A DNA stretch of 64,000 nt from an uncultured Frankiaceae bacterium (GCA_964395425.1 CAYNDD010000001.1:63-64062), one strand, 5' to 3'; counted from the first letter of the stretch, positions 38,001-54,711 are shown. Numbers and translations: made by a program. Notes: generated from the letters alone by a model not told the origin.

Positions 38001-38531
38001 TCACGGAGTGCCACCACCCGCCGGTAGTGAGTTAAGGACGCCCGTCATCTGCGCAACCGTTCGGTCCGCTAGCCGCTCGAGGCTCGACCTCAAGAACGGC
38101 GCGACGAGCGCCGCCACACCATGGAAATCGAACGTCGCAGCGTAGGTGATCGAGGTCGACGAGCCGTCGGGCGTAAAGGTCAGGTCGTCGGTGGAGGTGA
38201 CGGTCTTGTTGCGACCCGTGAAGACAAGGTGGCGGCCAGCCTCGGTGTGGCTCAGTTCGTAGTCCAGCTCGGTCTGACGGCCGCGGAACTCCGAGACATT
38301 GTGGAAGCGTGCACCGACCTCGAGCGGGCCGTCATCAATGCGTGTCGTCCGGATTGTGCCCGGGTCCCAGCGCTCGGTGTTGGTGAAGTCGACCAGGAAG
38401 TCATACACCTCTGCCGGCGAACGGTCGACCGTGAACCTGCGGCTGACCCTCAACACCGGGGCGCCCTCCGGGACCTGAAGCCGAGCCTCGGCCAGCGGCG
38501 CTGTCCTCGACGGCACGGCGAGTGCTCTCAA
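38001..38531 (-). CDS. SRPBCC (polyketide cyclase/dehydrase-like) family protein.
   Basis: 176-aa ORF with SRPBCC-like pattern: SRRFTVDRSPAEVYDFLVDFTNTERWDP. Confidence 0.6.
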   Translation of the reverse strand: MRALAVPSRTAPLAEARLQVPEGAPVLRVSRRFTVDRSPAEVYDFLVDFTNTERWDPGTIRTTRIDDGPLEVGARFHNVSEFRGRQTELDYELSHTEAGRHLVFTGRNKTVTSTDDLTFTPDGSSTSITYAATFDFHGVAALVAPFLRSSLERLADRTVAQMTGVLNSLPAGGGTP

Positions 38532-38758
38532 CCTTATCCGTCACGACTCATGGCCCCTAGCCGCCGTCGTCGACGAAACGCGGTGGCCCTGCTGGTGATC
38601 GCCGGCTCGCGGTCTTGTCCAGCTCACCCGGTGGCCTGGCGTCTGGCTCGGAGTGCAGATGGGGATGGTTGCCGTCGCGGTGGAGGTGGTCGGTGTCCGG
38701 ATATGCATGGACGTCCGACCACAAGGATCGGCGCCGCTCGTCGCCGCTCGGCCAGCGG

Positions 38759-39133
38759 TCAGCTCTTGCGGGTCGAACGCCGCGTGGCGTTTGACGCGGT
38801 CCGCTTCGGGGGTCTGGTCGCTGAGATCGGTGCGGTCCTCAGCCACTGATGCTCCTTCCTCTCTGCCCGAAGTTCGGCGTTTTGTGCTTCCAGGTCCAAG
38901 ACCATGGCGATCCCGGCAAGGTTCAACCCCGCTTCAAGAAGGTCGCCGATGTGTCGGAGCCGGTCGAGGTCCTCGGCGCTGTATCGGCGGGTACCGCCCT
39001 CGGTGCGGGTCGGTGCGAGCAACCCCCGGGACTCATACAGACGGAGGTTCTGCACTCCGATGCCCACCAGCTCGGAAGCGACCGAGATGCCATAGACACC
39101 GCGGTCGCCGGCCGGACTGGGCACTCCCGCCAT
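38759..39133 (-). CDS. MerR family regulator, HspR-like heat-shock repressor.
   Basis: YGISVASELVGIGVQNLRLYESRGLLAPTRTEGGTRRYSAEDLDRLRHIGDLLEAGLNLAGIAMVLDLE is collinear with mycobacterial HspR. Confidence 0.8.
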   Translation of the reverse strand: MAGVPSPAGDRGVYGISVASELVGIGVQNLRLYESRGLLAPTRTEGGTRRYSAEDLDRLRHIGDLLEAGLNLAGIAMVLDLEAQNAELRAERKEHQWLRTAPISATRPPKRTASNATRRSTRKS

Positions 39134-39214
39134 GAGCCGTCCTTCCGCCAGCAGTCACGCAAAATCACTCTTGCGATAGCATCCCACATGTGGTAAAAGA
39201 AATCTATAGCGTAT

Positions 39215-39238
39215 GCCATAGATAACCTGGTCTATGGC
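39215..39238. promoter_or_regulatory. 8-N8-8 inverted repeat GCCATAGA-taacctgg-TCTATGGC between the divergent hspR-like and hsp20 genes; candidate operator. A CACATGTG palindrome lies 25 nt upstream.
   Basis: Read directly from the sequence. It sits in an AT-rich patch of the divergent promoter region. It does not match the canonical HAIR consensus CTTGAGT-N7-ACTCAAG. Confidence 0.4.
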
Positions 39239-39266
39239 CCTACCTGGAGCATCACGAGAGGAGACG

Positions 39267-39713
39267 ATGGAGGTGGACACGATGCTGATGCGCACTGACC
39301 CGTTCCGTGAACTGGACCGACTCACCCAACAGGTCTTCGGCACCAATGGCACCCTCGCCCGCCCGTCGGTCATGCCGATGGACGCGTGGCGAGACGGCGA
39401 CACCTTCCACGTGGAGTTCGACCTTCCCGGGGTCAATCCGGACTCGATCGACCTCGATGTGGAGCGCAATGTGGTCACCGTCAAGGCGGAGCGGCCGGCC
39501 CGAGCCAGCGACGCCGAGCTGTTGGCGGCCGAACGGCCCCGGGGGGTGTTCAGTCGTCAGCTGGTCCTCGGCGACAACCTCGACACCGAGAAGATCGGCG
39601 CGAGCTACGACGATGGTGTTCTCACCTTGCGGATTCCGGTCGCCGAGCAGGCCAAGCCCCGCAAGATCTCGATCACCAGCAAGGCCGAAGACCGGCAGGC
39701 CATCGACGTCTGA
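39267..39713 (+). CDS. Hsp20 / alpha-crystallin family small heat-shock protein.
   Basis: [20 protein letters not shown]-terminus and an alpha-crystallin domain ([33 protein letters not shown]...GVLTLRIPV). GAGAGGAG RBS before ATG 39267. Confidence 0.85.
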
Positions 39714-39727
39714 GCGGGTGATGCGCG

Positions 39728-40036
39728 ATGCGAACCCAGACCCTCGACGGCGACCGGTTGGACTGCGCGCGCAGTACCAACGAGCAGTTCCTCGACCTCA
39801 TCTGCCGCGACGTTGAGTTGTTGCGCGCCGAGTTTGACGCCATCATCACCGCGCAATGGCCTGGCTCGCCTGCGGGTCGGCCAGGCTGCGGCGGGTTGAG
39901 GTCTTGGCGCCCGCAGAACTCCCTTCGCGGCGCTATCAGCCGCGCCAATCCGAGGCCAACCGGACCACCGATCCTGCATCGACTGACGGGGTGGCCACGC
40001 CCGCCGCCGACTGAACGCCGCTGTTGCGGCCGTTAG
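39728..40036 (+). CDS. Hypothetical protein (102 aa) downstream of hsp20.
   Basis: ORF only. The C-terminal half is low-complexity and Pro/Arg-rich. Confidence 0.25.
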   Translation: MRTQTLDGDRLDCARSTNEQFLDLICRDVELLRAEFDAIITAQWPGSPAGRPGCGGLRSWRPQNSLRGAISRANPRPTGPPILHRLTGWPRPPPTERRCCGR

Positions 40037-40169
40037 CCCTAGCAGCTCAGTTCTGGCATCAGTCCGACGTGACGCACGCGCAGCACCGACGTTGTGCCGT
40101 TGTGTTCGGAGGTCTCATTGCCGGACCGTGGCCTCGTACCACTTGGGGTCTCCAGTGCGCTCCGCGCAG

Positions 40170-40469
40170 GACTTCCTATTCCTCACCACCCGAGGCCCGC
40201 ATCCGATGCGCGGGAACTTCGGCCGCGACGTCCTCAAAGCCGCCACCGGCAGAGCCGGGCTGGGGGACCGGCACATCACCTGGCTCACCCTGCGGCACAC
40301 CGCCGCATCCCTCATGTTCGACGCCGGAATGACCATCTTCGAAGTCCAACACCGCCTCGGCCACAAAAGCCCGACCATGACCGCCGAGGTCGACACCCAC
40401 CTCATGCGCGAACGATTCAACGAAGGCCGCACCCGACTGGAGACCTACATGAGTGAGCATCGGGATTAG
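40170..40469 (+). pseudogene. Tyrosine recombinase / phage integrase C-terminal fragment, truncated and with the catalytic Tyr replaced.
   Basis: FLFLTTRGPHPMRGNFGRDVLKAATGRAGLG...LRHTAASLMFDAGMTIFEVQHRLGHKSPTMT aligns to the box II region of integrases (LRHT...HRLGH). The expected catalytic Y in the ...YTHL motif is D (EVDTHL). No N-terminal or core-binding domain is present. Confidence 0.6.
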
Positions 40470-40544
40470 CAGCCTCGGGGCACCTGTGACACCCATCATC
40501 CCGATATCCCCACTGAGAGGGTTTAACTGGAGTAGCATTGTCCA

Positions 40545-41348
40545 ATGGCTGCCGGTATCTCATCGACATCTAGGTCAGATCTCGCCCGTCTTACCGGTCG
40601 CGGTCAGCGGTTCATCGTGGTCGCGGACGCCGAGCGCGAGCTTGGATTGGATCGTGAGGGTGCTCGCCGGCGGCTTGTTCGGTGGGCGGAGCAAGGCTGG
40701 CTGCGCCGGGTTCGCCGCGATCTGTATATCCCGGTGCCTGTCGACGCAGAGCACCCTGAGTCATGGGGCGCCGATCCGGTGGTGCTCGCCGATGAGGTGT
40801 GGGGACCGTGTTACGTCTCGGGCTGGACAGCGGCGAACCACTGGGGTCTGAGCGAGCAGAGCTTCCGTACCACGGTGATCAGGACCACCAGACGTGTCCG
40901 GCAATCCACCCAACGATTGTTGGACAATGAATTTCTCCTCGCACACGTCGCGCCGGAGAACATGACTTGGGGACTACGTCGTGAGTGGCGAGACGAGAGG
41001 CGGATCCAGTTCGCCGACCCAGCGAGGACCCTCGTCGACATGCTTGACGATCCCGCGCTCGGCGGCGGCGTTCGATTGGTAACCGAGTGCCTTGGTGCCT
41101 ACCTCGAGAGCGAGGATGTCGGGGCCCTGATAAGCGCTGCGGATCGGCTGGGGAATCGTGCGGTATTCAAGCGGCTCGGTTACCTCGCGGAACAGATCGG
41201 CGCTGAGGAGCACATCCTCGACGCGAGTGAGGCTCGGCTGTCGCAAGGCTTCGCGTTGCTCGACCCGACCCAGTCAACCGGAGGCTCTCGCTCACGACGG
41301 TGGCGGATCGTGGCGAATGTTCAGGTCGACGCGACCGAGCCGTCATGA
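40545..41348 (+). CDS. abiEi: AbiEi family antitoxin / transcriptional regulator (type IV TA, abortive infection).
   Basis: N-terminal wHTH: SDLARLTGRGQRFIVVADAERELGLDREGARRRLVRWAEQGWLRRVRRDLY. The C-terminal domain matches AbiEi_4 architecture. Paired with a DUF1814 toxin gene. Confidence 0.7.
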   Translation: MAAGISSTSRSDLARLTGRGQRFIVVADAERELGLDREGARRRLVRWAEQGWLRRVRRDLYIPVPVDAEHPESWGADPVVLADEVWGPCYVSGWTAANHWGLSEQSFRTTVIRTTRRVRQSTQRLLDNEFLLAHVAPENMTWGLRREWRDERRIQFADPARTLVDMLDDPALGGGVRLVTECLGAYLESEDVGALISAADRLGNRAVFKRLGYLAEQIGAEEHILDASEARLSQGFALLDPTQSTGGSRSRRWRIVANVQVDATEPS

Positions 41349-42316
41349 TCCCTGCCCGCGAGGTGCTCGCACTGCGCACCGAGTGGTCGCTTCGTGCCGA
41401 TGTCATCGAGAAGGACTGGGCCCTGGGATGGGTGCTCGCAGGAATCGCGGCGCACCCGCAATTGTCAACGTGGATCTTCAAAGGCGGGACATGCCTGCGC
41501 AAGTGTTTTTACGAGACCTACAGGTTCTCCGAGGACCTTGACTTCACCGTCGTCGGGGATGGACCGGAAGAGCCCGAAGAAATCATCCCGATCTTCCGGG
41601 AGGTGGCCAGTTGGCTCGCCGATGAAGCCGGTCTCGAGATGCAGATCGACGACCGATCGTTCATTCGACGACGCAACCTGCAAGGCGTGTCCACAACGCT
41701 CGGACGGGTGGCCTACCGGGGGCCGTCAAATCCCCTGACGATGACGACCCCACCAAAGCTGAAGATCGACCTGACCTCCGATGAACTGATCGTGAACCGA
41801 CCAGTTCGACGCGGCGTGATGCACCCGTACTCCGACGCACCACAGCCTCTCGCAGCGATCAACTGCTATTCGATCGTCGATCTGTTAGCCGAGAAACTAC
41901 GCGCGTTGGCGCAACGCTGCAGGCCGCGTGATCTGTACGACGTCGTGTTTCTGTTCCGTCACCCCGACCTGCTCGGGCGCGCGCCGGCCGTCGCTAGTTC
42001 GCTTGCACGCAAGTGCACCCACGTTGGCATCGATCCGCCGACACTGGCCAGCATTCATGCAACGCCTTACCGGGCCGAGGTGGAGACAGAGTGGGCCAAC
42101 ATGCTCGATCATCAGCTTCCGAGCCTGCCGGCGTTCGGTCACGTGTGGGCAGCCTTGGAGGAGCTATTCGGTTGGCTCACAGGACAGATCGCGCTGCCAA
42201 GCCTGCCCCGCGCCGAGTCCAGCGGTCTCACCGACTGGCGCGCGCCACGGTCGATGACTTCCTGGCGCACCGGAGCACCTCTTGAGCTGATCCGCTTCGC
42301 TGGCGCCAACCGCTAA
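41345..42316 (+). CDS. abiEii: AbiEii/AbiGii family nucleotidyltransferase toxin (DUF1814).
   Basis: Hallmark motif FKGGTCLRKCFYETYRFSEDLDFTV (KGGTAL...RFSEDiD). ATGA overlap with abiEi. Confidence 0.8.
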   Translation: MIPAREVLALRTEWSLRADVIEKDWALGWVLAGIAAHPQLSTWIFKGGTCLRKCFYETYRFSEDLDFTVVGDGPEEPEEIIPIFREVASWLADEAGLEMQIDDRSFIRRRNLQGVSTTLGRVAYRGPSNPLTMTTPPKLKIDLTSDELIVNRPVRRGVMHPYSDAPQPLAAINCYSIVDLLAEKLRALAQRCRPRDLYDVVFLFRHPDLLGRAPAVASSLARKCTHVGIDPPTLASIHATPYRAEVETEWANMLDHQLPSLPAFGHVWAALEELFGWLTGQIALPSLPRAESSGLTDWRAPRSMTSWRTGAPLELIRFAGANR

Positions 42317-42522
42317 AGGTCGAGATCGACTACCGACCTGAGACCGGCCGAGCCGGTCGCAGGATCGTGGAGCCCTACTCGTTTCGCCGCACGAGAGACG
42401 GCAACATTGTTCTGCTCGTCATCAACCATCACGGACAGCTGCGCTCCTATCGCACGGACCGTATTGCGGCGGTCTCCGTCACTCGGGATGCATACCGACC
42501 ACGACGCCAGGTCGAGTTCTAG
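42286..42522 (+). pseudogene. Start-less WYL-domain-like fragment immediately downstream of abiEii.
   Basis: Frame +2 relative to abiEii reads (TGA)ADPLRWRQPLKVEIDYRPETGRAGRRIVEPYSFRRTRDGNIVLLVINHHGQLRSYRTDRIAAVSVT. This follows the WYL pattern: xIxYxxxxGxxxxRxVEPYxLxxxxGxWYLxAxxxxxxxxRxFRxDRI. There is no ATG/GTG near its 5' end and no HTH N-domain. Confidence 0.45.
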
Positions 42523-42863
42523 AACCCGGCTTGCCGATCTCGGTGGTAGTCGAGCCCTGGCCCCGGACGCCCAACCTGTCGGATACGCGGACGTCTGGTG
42601 AAAATTCGCGCCGCTGGGCAACGCAGTCCACACGCACGCCGTGGGTGCATTCACCGCAGCCATGGCCGACAGGTACCGCGTCGTCGCCGCTGTCCTGCTG
42701 GTCGCTGCGGCCGGGGTCGGGGAGGGACTTCGACACCCCGCTCGATGGCTCGTGCCGTCAGGCAAGACCGCCATTACGACTGAGGGCGGGTGAGCCGAAG
42801 ACCAGTCGTAGCGGCGGCGGCAGTGGAGGCGTGGACAGTATTCGTCGATCACGGAGCTATAAA

Positions 42864-42897
42864 ACCAGGGTCGGCCTAGGGTCGCGCCCTCGGGACA
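42864..42897 (+). promoter_or_regulatory. Copy 1 of a conserved 34-nt element, ACCAGGGTCGGCCTAGGGTCGCGCCCTCGGGACA, containing tandem GGGTCG half-sites 11 bp apart. It lies 31 nt upstream of the membrane-protein gene.
   Basis: Near-identical copy at 47694-47728 (one indel, three mismatches), in the same orientation and at the same distance from an ATG. Confidence 0.5.
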
Positions 42898-42927
42898 TTC
42901 CGATTGGATTGCCATTGGCTGTGACCC

Positions 42928-43680
42928 ATGGACAGCTCGATCGATTTCGCCAGTCTCAGCAACTCACTCACAGCCGATCCTTCCGATGGTGTCGAGCGGA
43001 TCCATGCGGGTGCGAAGACGCGGTCCCGGCTGCTTGCTATCTCCTTGCCGATTGCCTCCGGGTTGTACGTCGCCGCTGTAGCTCTGAACCCGAAGGGCAC
43101 CGATCAGGTCATTACGAGCATGGCCACGGCGGCCACCCTCCTGTCGATTGCGGGGAAGCACACGACTCAGCTCTACATCTCGGGCGCCCTGACGGTCCTC
43201 GCACTCGGCGCCCTGGCGATCGCATATGCCGCTATCGCGACGCTGGCGAGCAGACGCGGCGCCGGCCTCGCCACGGTCGCCGCAGTCATCGGGATAGTCG
43301 CCAACTTCAGCGGTGCTGTCTACAACGTTCTGGTCGGATTCAACCTCGCCGCTGCGGCCTCGGCACCGATATCGCGTGAGGCAGCTGCTCGGTTCCTGGT
43401 CACAACCTTCGACTCTGGATTCGCGACGGCGTTCTCTTATGTCTATTTCGTTGGCATATACCTTGCGCCGATCCTGATGGGAATCGCCTTGTGGCGTGGC
43501 CGAAGCGTGCCCCGTTGGCTCGCGATCTTCTTCATCCTCGCTCTGGAGGTCGCTCAACAAGCACCAGCCAAGGGCGTTGTTGCGGCCGCCTACACGGTGC
43601 CTTTCATGGTCGTGATGGTGATTCTCGCCACCCGGATATGGCGCTCGTCAGCGCAAGAGCGCAGTGAGCTCTCGTCGTGA
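42928..43680 (+). CDS. Integral membrane protein, about 6 TMS (DUF4386-like), function unknown.
   Basis: 250-aa ORF with six long hydrophobic segments. Its 3' end overlaps the 3' end of the convergent LAL regulator gene by about 33 nt. Confidence 0.55.
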   Translation: MDSSIDFASLSNSLTADPSDGVERIHAGAKTRSRLLAISLPIASGLYVAAVALNPKGTDQVITSMATAATLLSIAGKHTTQLYISGALTVLALGALAIAYAAIATLASRRGAGLATVAAVIGIVANFSGAVYNVLVGFNLAAAASAPISREAAARFLVTTFDSGFATAFSYVYFVGIYLAPILMGIALWRGRSVPRWLAIFFILALEVAQQAPAKGVVAAAYTVPFMVVMVILATRIWRSSAQERSELSS

Positions 43681-46347
43681 GGTGATGTCGAGCTTCATGT
43701 AGCTATTGCGGAGGTGGTATTCAACGGTCTTCACGGACAGGTAGAGCCGGCTGGCCACCTCCCGATTGGTCAGGCCGGTAGCGACGAGTCGGGCGACGGC
43801 GAGCTCGGCGCGGCTCAGGCCGAGGATGGTTGCTGGGCTGGCGGTCGCTGCGCTCACTCGTAAGGTGGCAAGCTCCTCCGCACACGCCTGAACGTAGGGA
43901 TCTGCGCCCATCGCTGAGAAGAAGCGATGCGCGCGCTCCAGCTGTGTGATGGCTGCTGCTGGATTACCCGTCTGGTGCAGGTGTCGGCCGTGATGAAGCC
44001 CTAAGAGTGCATGTTCAAAGGGCATCGACACCTGCGCCTCAATCGCATGCGCCGCAACGAAGGCCTGATCCGCTTGAGTGTCGTTGCCGCGGGCTGCGGC
44101 GAGATTGCCGCGGCAGCGTGCGATGGACACCGCTGCCGAGGCCAGACCGTCGTCAGGGATGGCGTTCTCGAACTCCTCAAGCGCTGATTCGGCCTCGTCA
44201 AAGCGACCTAGTCCGATCAGCGCATCGACCTCGGTCGACCTCCAGTTGAAGACGCCGGGTCGGCCCCCGACGCCCAGCAGGTTGGTCGCGCGGATCCGCT
44301 CGGCCGCGACGAGGACCCCTGGCAGGTCGGTTCGCGATGCTGCGAGAGCCACGGCGGCTGTTCCTGATGCGGCCACGGGGAGAACAAGCGGAAGCCGCTC
44401 AGCGGCCGCCCTCGCGGCAGCGACATGCAGCTGTGCAGCGTCCCACTGGCCGCGGCAGGCCAGGACTTGCGCTGCCCGACCATGTGCCCGAGCCAGGTCG
44501 ACTGGCCGATCATTGTCCTGCGCCAACGACGTCGCGAGCTGGGCGTGCGCCACCGCCGCGTCCCAGTCGCCGCGACGGAAGTGGGCGTCGCTCAGTGCCG
44601 CTAAGCACGGCACCGGATAAGTGGACGGCAACCCCGCCTGCAGGCGCGCCGCGGCGACGCCGAGGTCGGCGATCGCCCCGGCGAGGTCATCCGAGTACAC
44701 CTTGACGATGCCGCGCATGATCAGGGCGTCAGTGGAAGTGAGCGGCACCTCGTTGCCAGCGGCGGGAAGGAAGCTCAGTACGGCAAACCCTTCCGGGCTG
44801 CGGCCGTCGGCCGCGAACGCATAGGCCTGCCCGGTACGCGCCATCGCACGCAACGCTGAACCCTCGACCGTGCCGGCCACCGCACGGTCGGCCCAGACGA
44901 GCGCTTCGTCGGGCCGACCGGAGATCACCATCCAGTTCGTCAACGATGTGGCAGCACGCGCCCCGATATCAGGCTCGGCCACCGGATCGTGGCCGCGCCA
45001 GGCGGCCAACAGACGGTCCTCGGCAGTGAGTGAACCCGTGAAGACCTCCAGCAGCCCAACCAGCGCGTCACGACGAGCGCTCGACACCTGGCAAGACTCA
45101 AGGACCCTCGCCGCCGCCAACGTGTCAGCCGCGTTGAGCAGGATCGCCGCCGCGTCGAGCAAGCGACGCTCCCGGTCAGCCGCACCGGGCGACAGGGCAG
45201 CAGCCTGCTCGATCGCCCAGGCAGCCGCAGCCGAGTCACCGGCCGGCGAGGAGGCGGAGGCAGACGCTTCGAGTTCGGCAGCGAGCGCCTCATCAGGTCC
45301 CACTGTCGCCGCAACCAAGTGCGCGAGCCTGACGCGCCCGGCAACGAGGCCAGCAGCTCGGGCATGCAGCTCGCGACGGCGCGTTGCGGACAGATCAGCG
45401 TAGATCGCGGCCCGGTACAACGGGTGAGCAAAACTCGCCTCGGACCGCAGCGGTCCTTCGGTCAACAGGCCAGCCACGACCGCGTCATCCATCTCGGGCT
45501 GTGCATCAGCGAGCTGCGCCACGGTCGCGATCGCCGAGAGCAATCCGTGCTGACCAACCACCGATGCTGCCCCCAGGAAGGCCTGAGTCGCTGACGAGAG
45601 TGCAGCGACGCGGGCCAGGATGACAGCGGACAGTTCACGCGGCGCCGGCAGGTCACCCTCCCCGGCACGGTTGAGACCTGCGACGCCGATCTCGTCGAGC
45701 AACGCCCGGCAATACAGCGCGTTGCCCCCGGCGTGGACCAACAAGCGCGACGCACCCTGAGCCGACAACGATCCCAGCCCGAGCCGGCTGGCCAGCTCGC
45801 TGAGGTCATCCGCGCTGAGCCCGCCCAGCCTGATCTGAGTCACCCGAGGATCCCCAGCGACGAACCGGGCCCAGCCGGGATCGACCACCTCACCAATTCG
45901 CGTCGACACGATGGTCAGGACTCGATCTGCCCGCAGCCGCCGGAGCGCGAACAGCACGGCACGTGACGATGGCCGGTCAGCCCATTGCAGGTCGTCGATG
46001 CTCAGCACTGCCACGCGCTCGTCGGCTTGCAGGTCGTCGAGCCGGGCCAGCAGCTGCGCCCCGACAGCCATCGGGTCGATCCCCGGATCCGTCGCCCCAG
46101 GCGTGAGTTGGTCGATGACCCCGTAGGAGAGCAGCACCTCCTCTTCGTCGCCGCCAGCCTCGAGGACGACCGCATCCGTCAGTGAACCCAGGAAGCGAGC
46201 GAGCAGGCTCGACTTGCCCGATCCCGGGTCGCCCTCGACATAGACGACCTGCGGGTGACCTTCTCGCGCCGCAGCCAGCCTGTCGTCCAGAACGTGGAGT
46301 TCGGGCAGCCGCCCAACGAAGTCGGCTGGGGCACTCACAACACTCAC
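43648..46347 (-). CDS. Large ATP-binding LuxR-family (LAL) regulator: N-terminal AAA/P-loop NTPase, helical TPR-like middle, C-terminal LuxR HTH.
   Basis: Walker A VVYVEGDPGSGKSSLLARFLG and Walker B VLSIDDLQWAD. About 500 aa of Ala/Leu-rich helical repeats. C-terminal LSRAELAVARLVATGLTNREVASRLYLSVKTVEYHLRNSYMKLDITSRREL. Likely GTG start at 46347 (VSVVSAPADFVGR). Confidence 0.8.
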   Translation of the reverse strand: MSVVSAPADFVGRLPELHVLDDRLAAAREGHPQVVYVEGDPGSGKSSLLARFLGSLTDAVVLEAGGDEEEVLLSYGVIDQLTPGATDPGIDPMAVGAQLLARLDDLQADERVAVLSIDDLQWADRPSSRAVLFALRRLRADRVLTIVSTRIGEVVDPGWARFVAGDPRVTQIRLGGLSADDLSELASRLGLGSLSAQGASRLLVHAGGNALYCRALLDEIGVAGLNRAGEGDLPAPRELSAVILARVAALSSATQAFLGAASVVGQHGLLSAIATVAQLADAQPEMDDAVVAGLLTEGPLRSEASFAHPLYRAAIYADLSATRRRELHARAAGLVAGRVRLAHLVAATVGPDEALAAELEASASASSPAGDSAAAAWAIEQAAALSPGAADRERRLLDAAAILLNAADTLAAARVLESCQVSSARRDALVGLLEVFTGSLTAEDRLLAAWRGHDPVAEPDIGARAATSLTNWMVISGRPDEALVWADRAVAGTVEGSALRAMARTGQAYAFAADGRSPEGFAVLSFLPAAGNEVPLTSTDALIMRGIVKVYSDDLAGAIADLGVAAARLQAGLPSTYPVPCLAALSDAHFRRGDWDAAVAHAQLATSLAQDNDRPVDLARAHGRAAQVLACRGQWDAAQLHVAAARAAAERLPLVLPVAASGTAAVALAASRTDLPGVLVAAERIRATNLLGVGGRPGVFNWRSTEVDALIGLGRFDEAESALEEFENAIPDDGLASAAVSIARCRGNLAAARGNDTQADQAFVAAHAIEAQVSMPFEHALLGLHHGRHLHQTGNPAAAITQLERAHRFFSAMGADPYVQACAEELATLRVSAATASPATILGLSRAELAVARLVATGLTNREVASRLYLSVKTVEYHLRNSYMKLDITSRRELTALLR

Positions 46348-46532
46348 CTGCCGACGCTCTCGTGCAGGACTATTCTCGCGCGTACCGCTCGGACCCTGCG
46401 GGAAGCACAAGCGTACTGATCTCAGCCATCGAGGTGCGGCCGCCAGCCGACGCGGTCGCGATCGGTGAGCACCGGCAAGGGACGATCGTGACCGCCAGCC
46501 GAGGCACGCCGGGCGAATCAGTTCGGTGGCGC

Positions 46533-54340: not shown

Positions 54341-54639
54341 GACGACCAGACGGCCGCGCACGGTAGCGAACCCGCCGACAGGACGTTGCCTGCATGCACA
54401 TTTCGGAGACCCGCAGGGTTCCGTGGGCGCGCACGCGGCCAACTACCGCTCCCGCCTCCGTGGGCAATTGCGCAGGTTTACGAATGGAACGCCACGGCGC
54501 TGACCTGGGAAAACGTGTGCGGCCGAGCGCGCGAGCGCCGAGATTCGCGGATCAGCTGCGGGAAGGCTGTGGGAAGACCAGCTTCCGAAATGATCTTCGT
54601 TCAATCCAACAACCGGCTTTGACCTGCGGTTTCACAAAG

Positions 54640-54711
54640 TGCCCCCGGCAGGATTCGAACCTGCGCCACCGCCTCCGGAGGGCGGTGCTCTATCCCCTGA
54701 GCTACGGGGGC
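54640..54711 (-). tRNA. tRNA-Arg (anticodon CCG).
   Basis: Reverse complement reads GCCCCCGTAGCTCAGGGGATAGAGCACCGCCCTCCGGAGGCGGTGGCGCAGGTTCGAATCCTGCCGGGGGCA. Cloverleaf has a 7-bp acceptor, D-arm, anticodon loop CTCCGGA (CCG), and GGTTCGAATCC T-arm. No encoded CCA. Confidence 0.85.

Follow-up and report, generated by a model that had tools for sequence, protein, structure and literature searches.

The window considered here is a stretch of 64,000 nucleotides (nt) from an uncultured Frankiaceae bacterium (GCA_964395425.1, CAYNDD010000001.1:63-64062), with positions counted from its first letter. It carries an abiE toxin-antitoxin module, consisting of the antitoxin gene abiEi and the toxin gene abiEii. 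An original prediction, made from the sequence alone, had pointed to an open frame without a start codon at the 3' end of abiEii and likened it to a WYL domain. The elements of the module are as follows.

40545 to 41348, plus strand: abiEi, antitoxin and transcriptional regulator, 267 amino acids (aa), intact, with a 4-nt overlap (ATGA) with abiEii.
41345 to 42316, plus strand: 5' piece of the abiEii-WYL gene, codons 1-323, encoding the nucleotidyltransferase (NTase) toxin domain, the linker and the first WYL helix, with a premature TAA at 42314-42316.
42312 to 42313, plus strand: frameshift site, ancestral ...AAC CGC CTA AAG..., in the window AAC CGC TAA AGG.
42313 to 42522, plus strand: 3' piece of the abiEii-WYL gene, out of frame, codons 324-392, encoding the five-stranded WYL beta-barrel, with the native TAG at 42520-42522.
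42286 to 42522, plus strand: the open frame of the original prediction, 78 sense codons (ADPLRWRQPLKVEIDYRPETGRAGRRIVEPYSFRRTRDGNIVLLVINHHGQLRSYRTDRIAAVSVTRDAYRPRRQVEF) followed by the TAG at 42520-42522.
42286 to 42312, plus strand: 5' end of that open frame, nine codons (ADPLRWRQP) that are an out-of-frame reading of AbiEii codons 315-323 and not real protein.

The 78-codon frame opens directly after an in-frame TGA (42283-42285) and shares 31 nt with the end of abiEii, which stops at the TAA at 42314-42316. No start codon is present at its 5' end, and the first one in frame is a GTG at 42367. In all these respects the sequence bears out the original prediction. Its WYL identity was confirmed by the profile search, in which the 78-aa translation matches Pfam WYL PF13280 with 28.8 bits (E=1.2e-6; gathering score 21.8). 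The similarity is far above chance. Separate expression of the WYL piece from GTG 42367 was considered and rejected; strand 1 and some of strand 2 of the barrel would be absent from the 51-aa product, and the sole Shine-Dalgarno-like AGGA lies 2 nt away, within the conserved RRIVE codons.

The AbiEii frame starts at ATG 41345 and ends with ...APLELIRFAGANR and a stop (FAGANR, CGC TAA at 42311-42316). Joining it to the other frame from 42313 (LKVEIDYRPE...) yields a protein of 392 aa. The AbiEii piece matches Pfam AbiEii PF08843 over residues 30-267 (129.4 bits, E=2.8e-37; gathering score 22.5). In the PADLOC AbiEii profile PDLC02317, which has 396 positions, the 5' piece accounts for positions 1-322 (E=9.9e-104) and the 3' piece for positions 323-386 (E=1.9e-14). 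The two halves are adjacent, non-overlapping and collinear, and both pieces therefore belong to one family profile. Meanwhile, the 392-aa reconstruction matches PF13280 with 29.1 bits over positions 3-69 of 70, against the same gathering score of 21.8. This match starts at profile position 3, compared with 14 for the 78-codon frame, so that the first WYL helix is encoded in the AbiEii frame. The genuine protein sequence in the 78-codon frame thus begins at 42313 (L324), and the conserved APLELIRFAGANR over 42286-42312 sits in the AbiEii frame of the family alignment (A1, 18 sequences).

Searching 5.8 billion protein clusters with the reconstruction returned 4877 matches. The best 120 of these 4877 are all single proteins of 385-407 aa, aligned with 98-100% coverage and 58-78% identity, and nearly all of them carry PF08843 and PF13280 together. 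More than 100 of the proteins listed are 390-392 aa long, encoded by a single ORF, and cover the reconstruction completely. Residues 324-392 are 64-74% identical to the C-termini of the closest homologues. The FAGANR/LKVEIDYR junction is the family consensus in A1, where A319, G320, N322, D329, Y330 and R331 are invariant around it. The literal W-Y-L tripeptide is replaced by V-L-F/L in the AbiEii-WYL family. This subfamily is very common in Actinomycetota and neighbouring phyla, and an architecture of WYL with an 'AbiGII-like nucleotidyltransferase (DUF1814)' was already listed by Makarova et al. (2014; PMC4012209), so that the arrangement is not unusual in kind, contrary to what the original prediction had supposed. 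In the literature searched, the WYL domain of the AbiEii-WYL family is mentioned in comparative genomics only, and no experimental test of it was found.

With the AbiEii-WYL subfamily (PDLC02317), the window copy shares the domain order, the reconstructed length of 392 aa, the consensus junction and the C-terminal ...VEF, as well as an overlapping upstream abiEi and a siting beside integrases and other defence genes. In contrast, the subfamily is encoded by one open reading frame (ORF), while the window gene is split by a 1-nt deletion and only residues 1-323 can be made. Two frames are needed in the window and in L001-L006. The window copy agrees with the subfamily in sequence, fold and operon but not in having a single ORF, and it is thus a disrupted member.

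The lesion was located by comparison with intact alleles. Among the proteins that cluster with the truncated product at 90% identity is an intact 392-aa allele (P0125), whose junction and C-terminus are as predicted; the same holds for the partial in-frame alleles P0123, P0124 and P0126. The contig of P0125 (JGI 3300086449, here L090) is 96.4% identical in DNA to window 40170-43655 and syntenic further to the right. In the pairwise alignment, GCCAACCGCCTAAAGG of L090 faces GCCAACCG-CTAAAGG of the window. This alignment indicates that one C of CGCC was lost in the window, changing Arg323-Leu324 (CGC CTA) into Arg323-stop (CGC TAA). Distant homologues read AAC CGA CTC AAG (L009), AAC CGA CTC AAA (L008) and AAC AGG CTT CGC (L007) at this site. 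A second sister strain (L091) also has the intact gene in one frame. By tblastn, 80 of 83 more distant relatives give one full-length in-frame segment; of the other sequences, two run into contig ends and one (L068) is matched over residues 1-386 in a single frame. The original prediction had suspected a single-nucleotide indel near 42280-42320. That suspicion holds, as one C is missing at 42312/42313; its corollary, that a frameshift creates the AbiEii-WYL fusion, has the direction reversed, because the fusion is ancestral and intact in L090, L091 and the 80 relatives.

An identical 323-aa product is encoded on 11 public contigs. We fetched six of them, comprising four from ENA, one from JGI and one Logan assembly. 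The deletion is present in all six, which are 100% identical to the window over 40545-42600 and show 0-6 differences from it over the rest of their 9-21 kb; since they differ elsewhere, they are separate assemblies of near-identical strains. Another protein of the same cluster (P0127) also ends at FAGANR. Two exact-pattern scans of a metagenome contig collection found neither the intact nor the deleted allele, the lineage being absent from that collection. By these alleles the deletion is strain-specific, and it reads as recent, the out-of-frame piece holding no stop or second indel. We also notice a second frameshift allele in the 90% cluster, P0122 (JGI 3300067032, a contig of 2098 nt), which ends ...FLFRHPRPARARAGRR followed by a stop. 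Such an end would be explained by a +1 C in the CACCCCGAC run around codon 207 (window ~41960). It may reflect a separate inactivation of the same toxin, or an error in a homopolymer.

Our preferred reading is that window 41345-42522 is one gene of the known AbiEii-WYL subfamily, broken by a recent 1-bp deletion, to which we give a probability of about 0.9.

An AlphaFold2 model was built on the reconstructed, repaired 392-aa protein (mean predicted local distance difference test score 78.6, predicted template modelling score 0.77). The model consists of an alpha/beta NTase domain, a low-confidence linker (residues 285-298), a helix (residues 313-321) and, after this helix, a five-stranded Sm/SH3-like barrel within 324-383 (strands 324-330, 338-349, 355-360, 366-370 and 374-383). 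Foldseek matches the N-terminal domain to MenT3/TglT (Rv1045) and MenT4 (E=1e-7 to 7e-7; 6j7q, 6y5u, 6y56), and the profile also matches 6y56 and AbiGII 9hlo. The C-terminal barrel is matched to the WYL domains of BrxR (7qfz), DriD (9cu3), CapW and PafBC, and superimposes on those of BrxR and DriD within 2.1-2.3 Å over 77-81 columns at 20-25% identity. Since the deletion lies exactly at the boundary of the WYL helix and strand 1, the entire barrel is missing from the truncated product.

The window gene resembles AbiE of Streptococcus agalactiae and MenAT of Mycobacterium tuberculosis (MenT3/TglT Rv1045, MenT4 Rv2826c) in its two-gene toxin-antitoxin layout, in its G-G and S-x-D-x-D motifs and in the DUF1814 NTase fold (template modelling score 0.57-0.63 relative to the target). 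However, the identity is just 14-21%, and the characterised toxins are ~290 aa long without the linker and WYL extension. BrxR, CapW, DriD and PafBC share the WYL barrel and are WYL regulators. In contrast, the window AbiEii-WYL has neither an N-terminal helix-turn-helix (HTH) nor a WCX dimerisation domain and is not a transcription factor.

The NTase motifs FKGGTCLRK, S62-E-D-L-D66 and E183-K184 are invariant in A1 and present in the window, and EKLRAL is retained as well. They probably correspond to S78, D82 and K189 of MenT3, as judged from the mutant names of structure entries and not from superposition. The barrel carries invariant arginines at positions 336, 340, 348, 367, 370 and 373, which are compatible with nucleic-acid or nucleotide binding. 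MenT toxins add nucleotides to tRNA acceptor ends and thereby block translation (PMC7450476, PMC10435456), and cognate antitoxins including S. agalactiae AbiEi neutralise the toxin via induced auto-phosphorylation (PMC11375011; bioRxiv 10.64898/2026.01.19.700257). The WYL domains of CapW and DriD bind single-stranded DNA (PMC9186387; structure entries). By analogy with AbiE and MenT, the NTase of an intact AbiEii-WYL would block translation through nucleotide addition at tRNA 3' ends, and AbiEi would neutralise it by inducing toxin auto-phosphorylation. The WYL barrel may bind single-stranded nucleic acid, which would be the tRNA substrate itself or else a signal of infection or damage through which the NTase is controlled.

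In the window strain, loss of a single C from ...AAC CGC CTA AAG... at 42312/42313 is expected to stop translation at the TAA directly 3' of Arg323. The truncated product would keep the complete NTase core and the first WYL helix but lose the beta-barrel. The 69 barrel codons would then persist as an untranslated, undecayed open frame, which is the apparent start-less WYL remnant. Such an allele would be a toxin without its sensor or handle, the WYL binding function being lost, and is most likely heading toward a pseudogene.

Further changes mark the window lineage. Against P0125/L090, the 3' piece differs at 2 of 69 residues, F358L and D362H, both derived in the window and at columns conserved to 86-94%. 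Near-invariant family columns are altered at Y55F, R113Q, F267V, D362H and F384Y, of which the three in the NTase part are 95-100% conserved (R113Q at a 100% column, Y55F at a 95% column). Y55F, R113Q, D362H and F358L are absent from P0125, and V267 and Y384 are common to the window and P0125. Y55F and R113Q may have attenuated the toxin before or alongside the frameshift. P0125 itself carries C174S at an invariant column. The AbiEi proteins of the window and L090 have equal length and differ by 4 aa, with a ratio of nonsynonymous to synonymous substitution rates (dN/dS) of 0.19.

Several observations weigh against the reading of a recently broken gene. The WYL piece, though out of frame, is free of stops and of additional indels, as continued translation would also predict. 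Window-specific changes are not significantly enriched in the WYL part (5 of 69, compared with 14 of 323 upstream; p=0.35), and its differences from L090 comprise 2 nonsynonymous and 0 synonymous changes. Deviation at conserved columns points the same way without reaching significance (6 of 41 versus 11 of 160, p=0.12). These tests of relaxed constraint go in the expected direction but none is significant, and all that follows from them is that the deletion is recent. At ~25 nt 3' of the stop there is a moderately stable hairpin (z=-2.2). Finally, the deletion is known from assemblies and not from reads, and the independence of the samples behind the 11 contigs is only partly established.

This reliance on assemblies leaves room for a sequencing or assembly artefact, in which the true genome reads CGCC and holds an intact 392-aa gene; intact alleles also occur in strains about 96-97% identical, and an error of co-assembly or consensus is conceivable. 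But each of the six contigs we fetched carries the deletion, and these were produced by different assemblers, stem from different archives and differ from each other at other positions; P0127 ends at FAGANR too, the site is a CC dinucleotide rather than a long homopolymer, and the nearest intact allele in the protein collection is the ~98%-identical P0125. An artefact is therefore hardly probable. We give slightly less credit still to a programmed -1 ribosomal frameshift or transcriptional slippage at CGC UAA, producing a short AbiEii together with full AbiEii-WYL. A shift exactly at CGC/UAA restores the consensus protein, the downstream frame is undecayed, and a hairpin at ~42341-42357 follows the stop; the fold of 42295-42400 (-42.2 kcal/mol, z=-2.2) is equalled by 6 of 200 shuffles and is marginal against shuffled sequence. 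Yet the 31-nt overlap has no X XXY YYZ heptamer (the site is GCC AAC CGC TAA AGG), and from the sequence and established knowledge the P-site CGC tRNA would face CCG after the slip and pair at 1 of 3 positions. There is no homopolymer or A/T run at the site for RNA-polymerase slippage, the hairpin is just the ETGRAGR codons, and the frameshift is unique to the strain, whereas the sister strains and 80 of 83 relatives use one frame. The original prediction had offered, as the first of two explanations, a remnant of an independent BrxR/CapW-type WYL regulator, its 5' part overwritten by AbiE insertion. WYL regulators do often flank defence genes (PMC9122601), and the frame lacks both a start codon and an HTH. 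However, the best match of the piece is the C-terminus of the AbiEii profile and not a regulator, the N-terminal WYL helix lies in the AbiEii frame, and intact one-ORF alleles occupy the same locus in sister strains. The upstream sequence is all AbiEii with its conserved linker by the Pfam and PADLOC profiles, with no HTH match on the same polypeptide and no spare sequence to hold an HTH remnant. This origin is refuted.

A different question is whether the truncation was adaptive, leaving an active, AbiEi-controlled toxin-antitoxin pair with altered triggering that is kept by selection. PADLOC also has a profile for a related AbiEii subfamily that lacks the C-terminal domain (PDLC02304, 260 positions), and it matches residues 1-275 with E=4.2e-65; the motifs FKGGT, S-E-D-L-D and EKLRAL are retained, abiEi is intact and under purifying selection (omega 0.19), and the truncated allele is the only one seen in this strain. 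On the other hand, the lineage has derived R113Q and Y55F at their highly conserved NTase columns, the surrounding island is decaying, and P0122 as a second frameshift allele hints at recurrent toxin loss. We regard adaptive truncation as unlikely. It is very unlikely that the deletion works as a functional switch, which would yield mostly AbiEii(1-323) with a trace of full-length protein via rare -1 frameshifting at CGC-UAA before the 42341-42357 hairpin, or a deregulated AbiEi-controlled toxin. If it did, the window would hold a natural delta-WYL allele showing the role of the WYL domain in AbiEii-WYL toxins.

The recently broken AbiEii-WYL gene lies within a larger setting, whose features are the following.

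38759 to 39133, minus strand: divergent MerR-family regulator, immediately left of the island breakpoint.
39234 to 39713, plus strand: Hsp20 gene, left of the island breakpoint, resembling with MerR a heat-shock regulator/chaperone pair.
40170 to 40469, plus strand: integrase remnant, the last ~100 codons of a tyrosine recombinase, matching Pfam Phage_integrase at profile positions 91-166 of 172 only.
42928 to 43680, plus strand: predicted membrane protein of 250 aa following abiE, with a sub-threshold DUF4386 match (21.8 bits against 27.6).
43648 to 46410, minus strand: AAA_16-TPR-GerE (LuxR-type) regulator of 899-920 aa, two genes downstream of abiE, its position kept in L090 and L091.
54639 to 54711, minus strand: tRNA-Arg(CCG), called by ARAGORN, the probable integration site and right end of the abiE island.

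AbiEi matches PADLOC AbiEi PDLC02271 over positions 8-256 of 263 (E=2.2e-75) and gives weak Pfam matches to AbiEi_4 and AbiEi_1. It stands immediately upstream of abiEii, a layout repeated in L007, L008, L009 and L090. In L090 the module is preceded by a full tyrosine integrase of 398 aa (L090 3906-5102). Homology between the window and L090 starts abruptly at window 40170, equal to L090 4803, inside this integrase gene, and the DNA left of 40170, with Hsp20 and MerR, is unrelated to the left flank of L090. The integrase of L008 was tried as the source of the window remnant and has no match to the window; no relatives of the remnant were found among the distant loci, and only L090 explained it. 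The 3' 45 nt of tRNA-Arg(CCG) recur upstream of the L090 integrase (L090 3766-3810, 97.8% identity), and this repeat is present in a single copy in the window. A shorter motif, TGACCTGCGGTTT, is found near both copies of the repeat. Within 38500-44500 no attachment (att)-like or other meaningful repeats were found, and Rfam gave no families over 39500-43500.

This comparison implies an island of roughly 15 kb integrated at tRNA-Arg, with abiE at the integrase end, that would be immobilised in the window strain. Its content includes the integrase, abiE, the LuxR-type regulator, MFS, DUF4260, MMPL and more. The island of the window strain has lost the left att site, most of the integrase and the toxin reading frame, and by these signs it is decaying. 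GC content is 0.60-0.65 over 40200-43800, compared with 0.67-0.71 in the flanks (36-37.5 kb and 44.2-46 kb), and this dip is consistent with horizontal acquisition of the abiE end of the island. The L090 counterpart of the membrane protein at 42928-43680 has 256 aa, and this region is ~6% diverged against ~1.3% for abiE. Elsewhere, the abiEi/abiEii-WYL pair of L008 (4287-7899) lies beside an LmuB_C (Lamassu-like) gene and a CTD7 gene, and that of L009 (2368-8946) beside an RHS/YD-repeat protein of 2192 aa. These two neighbourhoods are typical defence or polymorphic-toxin islands, and integrases also adjoin the module in relatives.

The public gene calls of the strain show a 323-aa 'AbiEii' and an antisense ORF of 200 aa (42313-42915, minus strand), which covers the WYL piece and the following spacer and is called in all public annotations of the strain. 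The antisense ORF has no Pfam match, and GC across its codon positions does not follow a coding pattern. L090 lacks this call, and two compensating 1-nt indels fall inside the ORF (window ~42605 and ~42656). The ORF is probably spurious, and its call probably goes back to the missing annotation of the WYL frame.

Software that searches for defence systems would probably report an intact AbiE at this locus. The right annotation is a frameshift-disrupted AbiEii-WYL toxin gene within a decaying tRNA-Arg island. What was found is a recent frameshift of an ordinary sort, in a defence toxin gene whose kind was already known, and its main value is for annotation. For the family, the two near-identical natural alleles, of which L090 has the intact one and the window the WYL-less one, offer a ready comparison for tests of the WYL domain.

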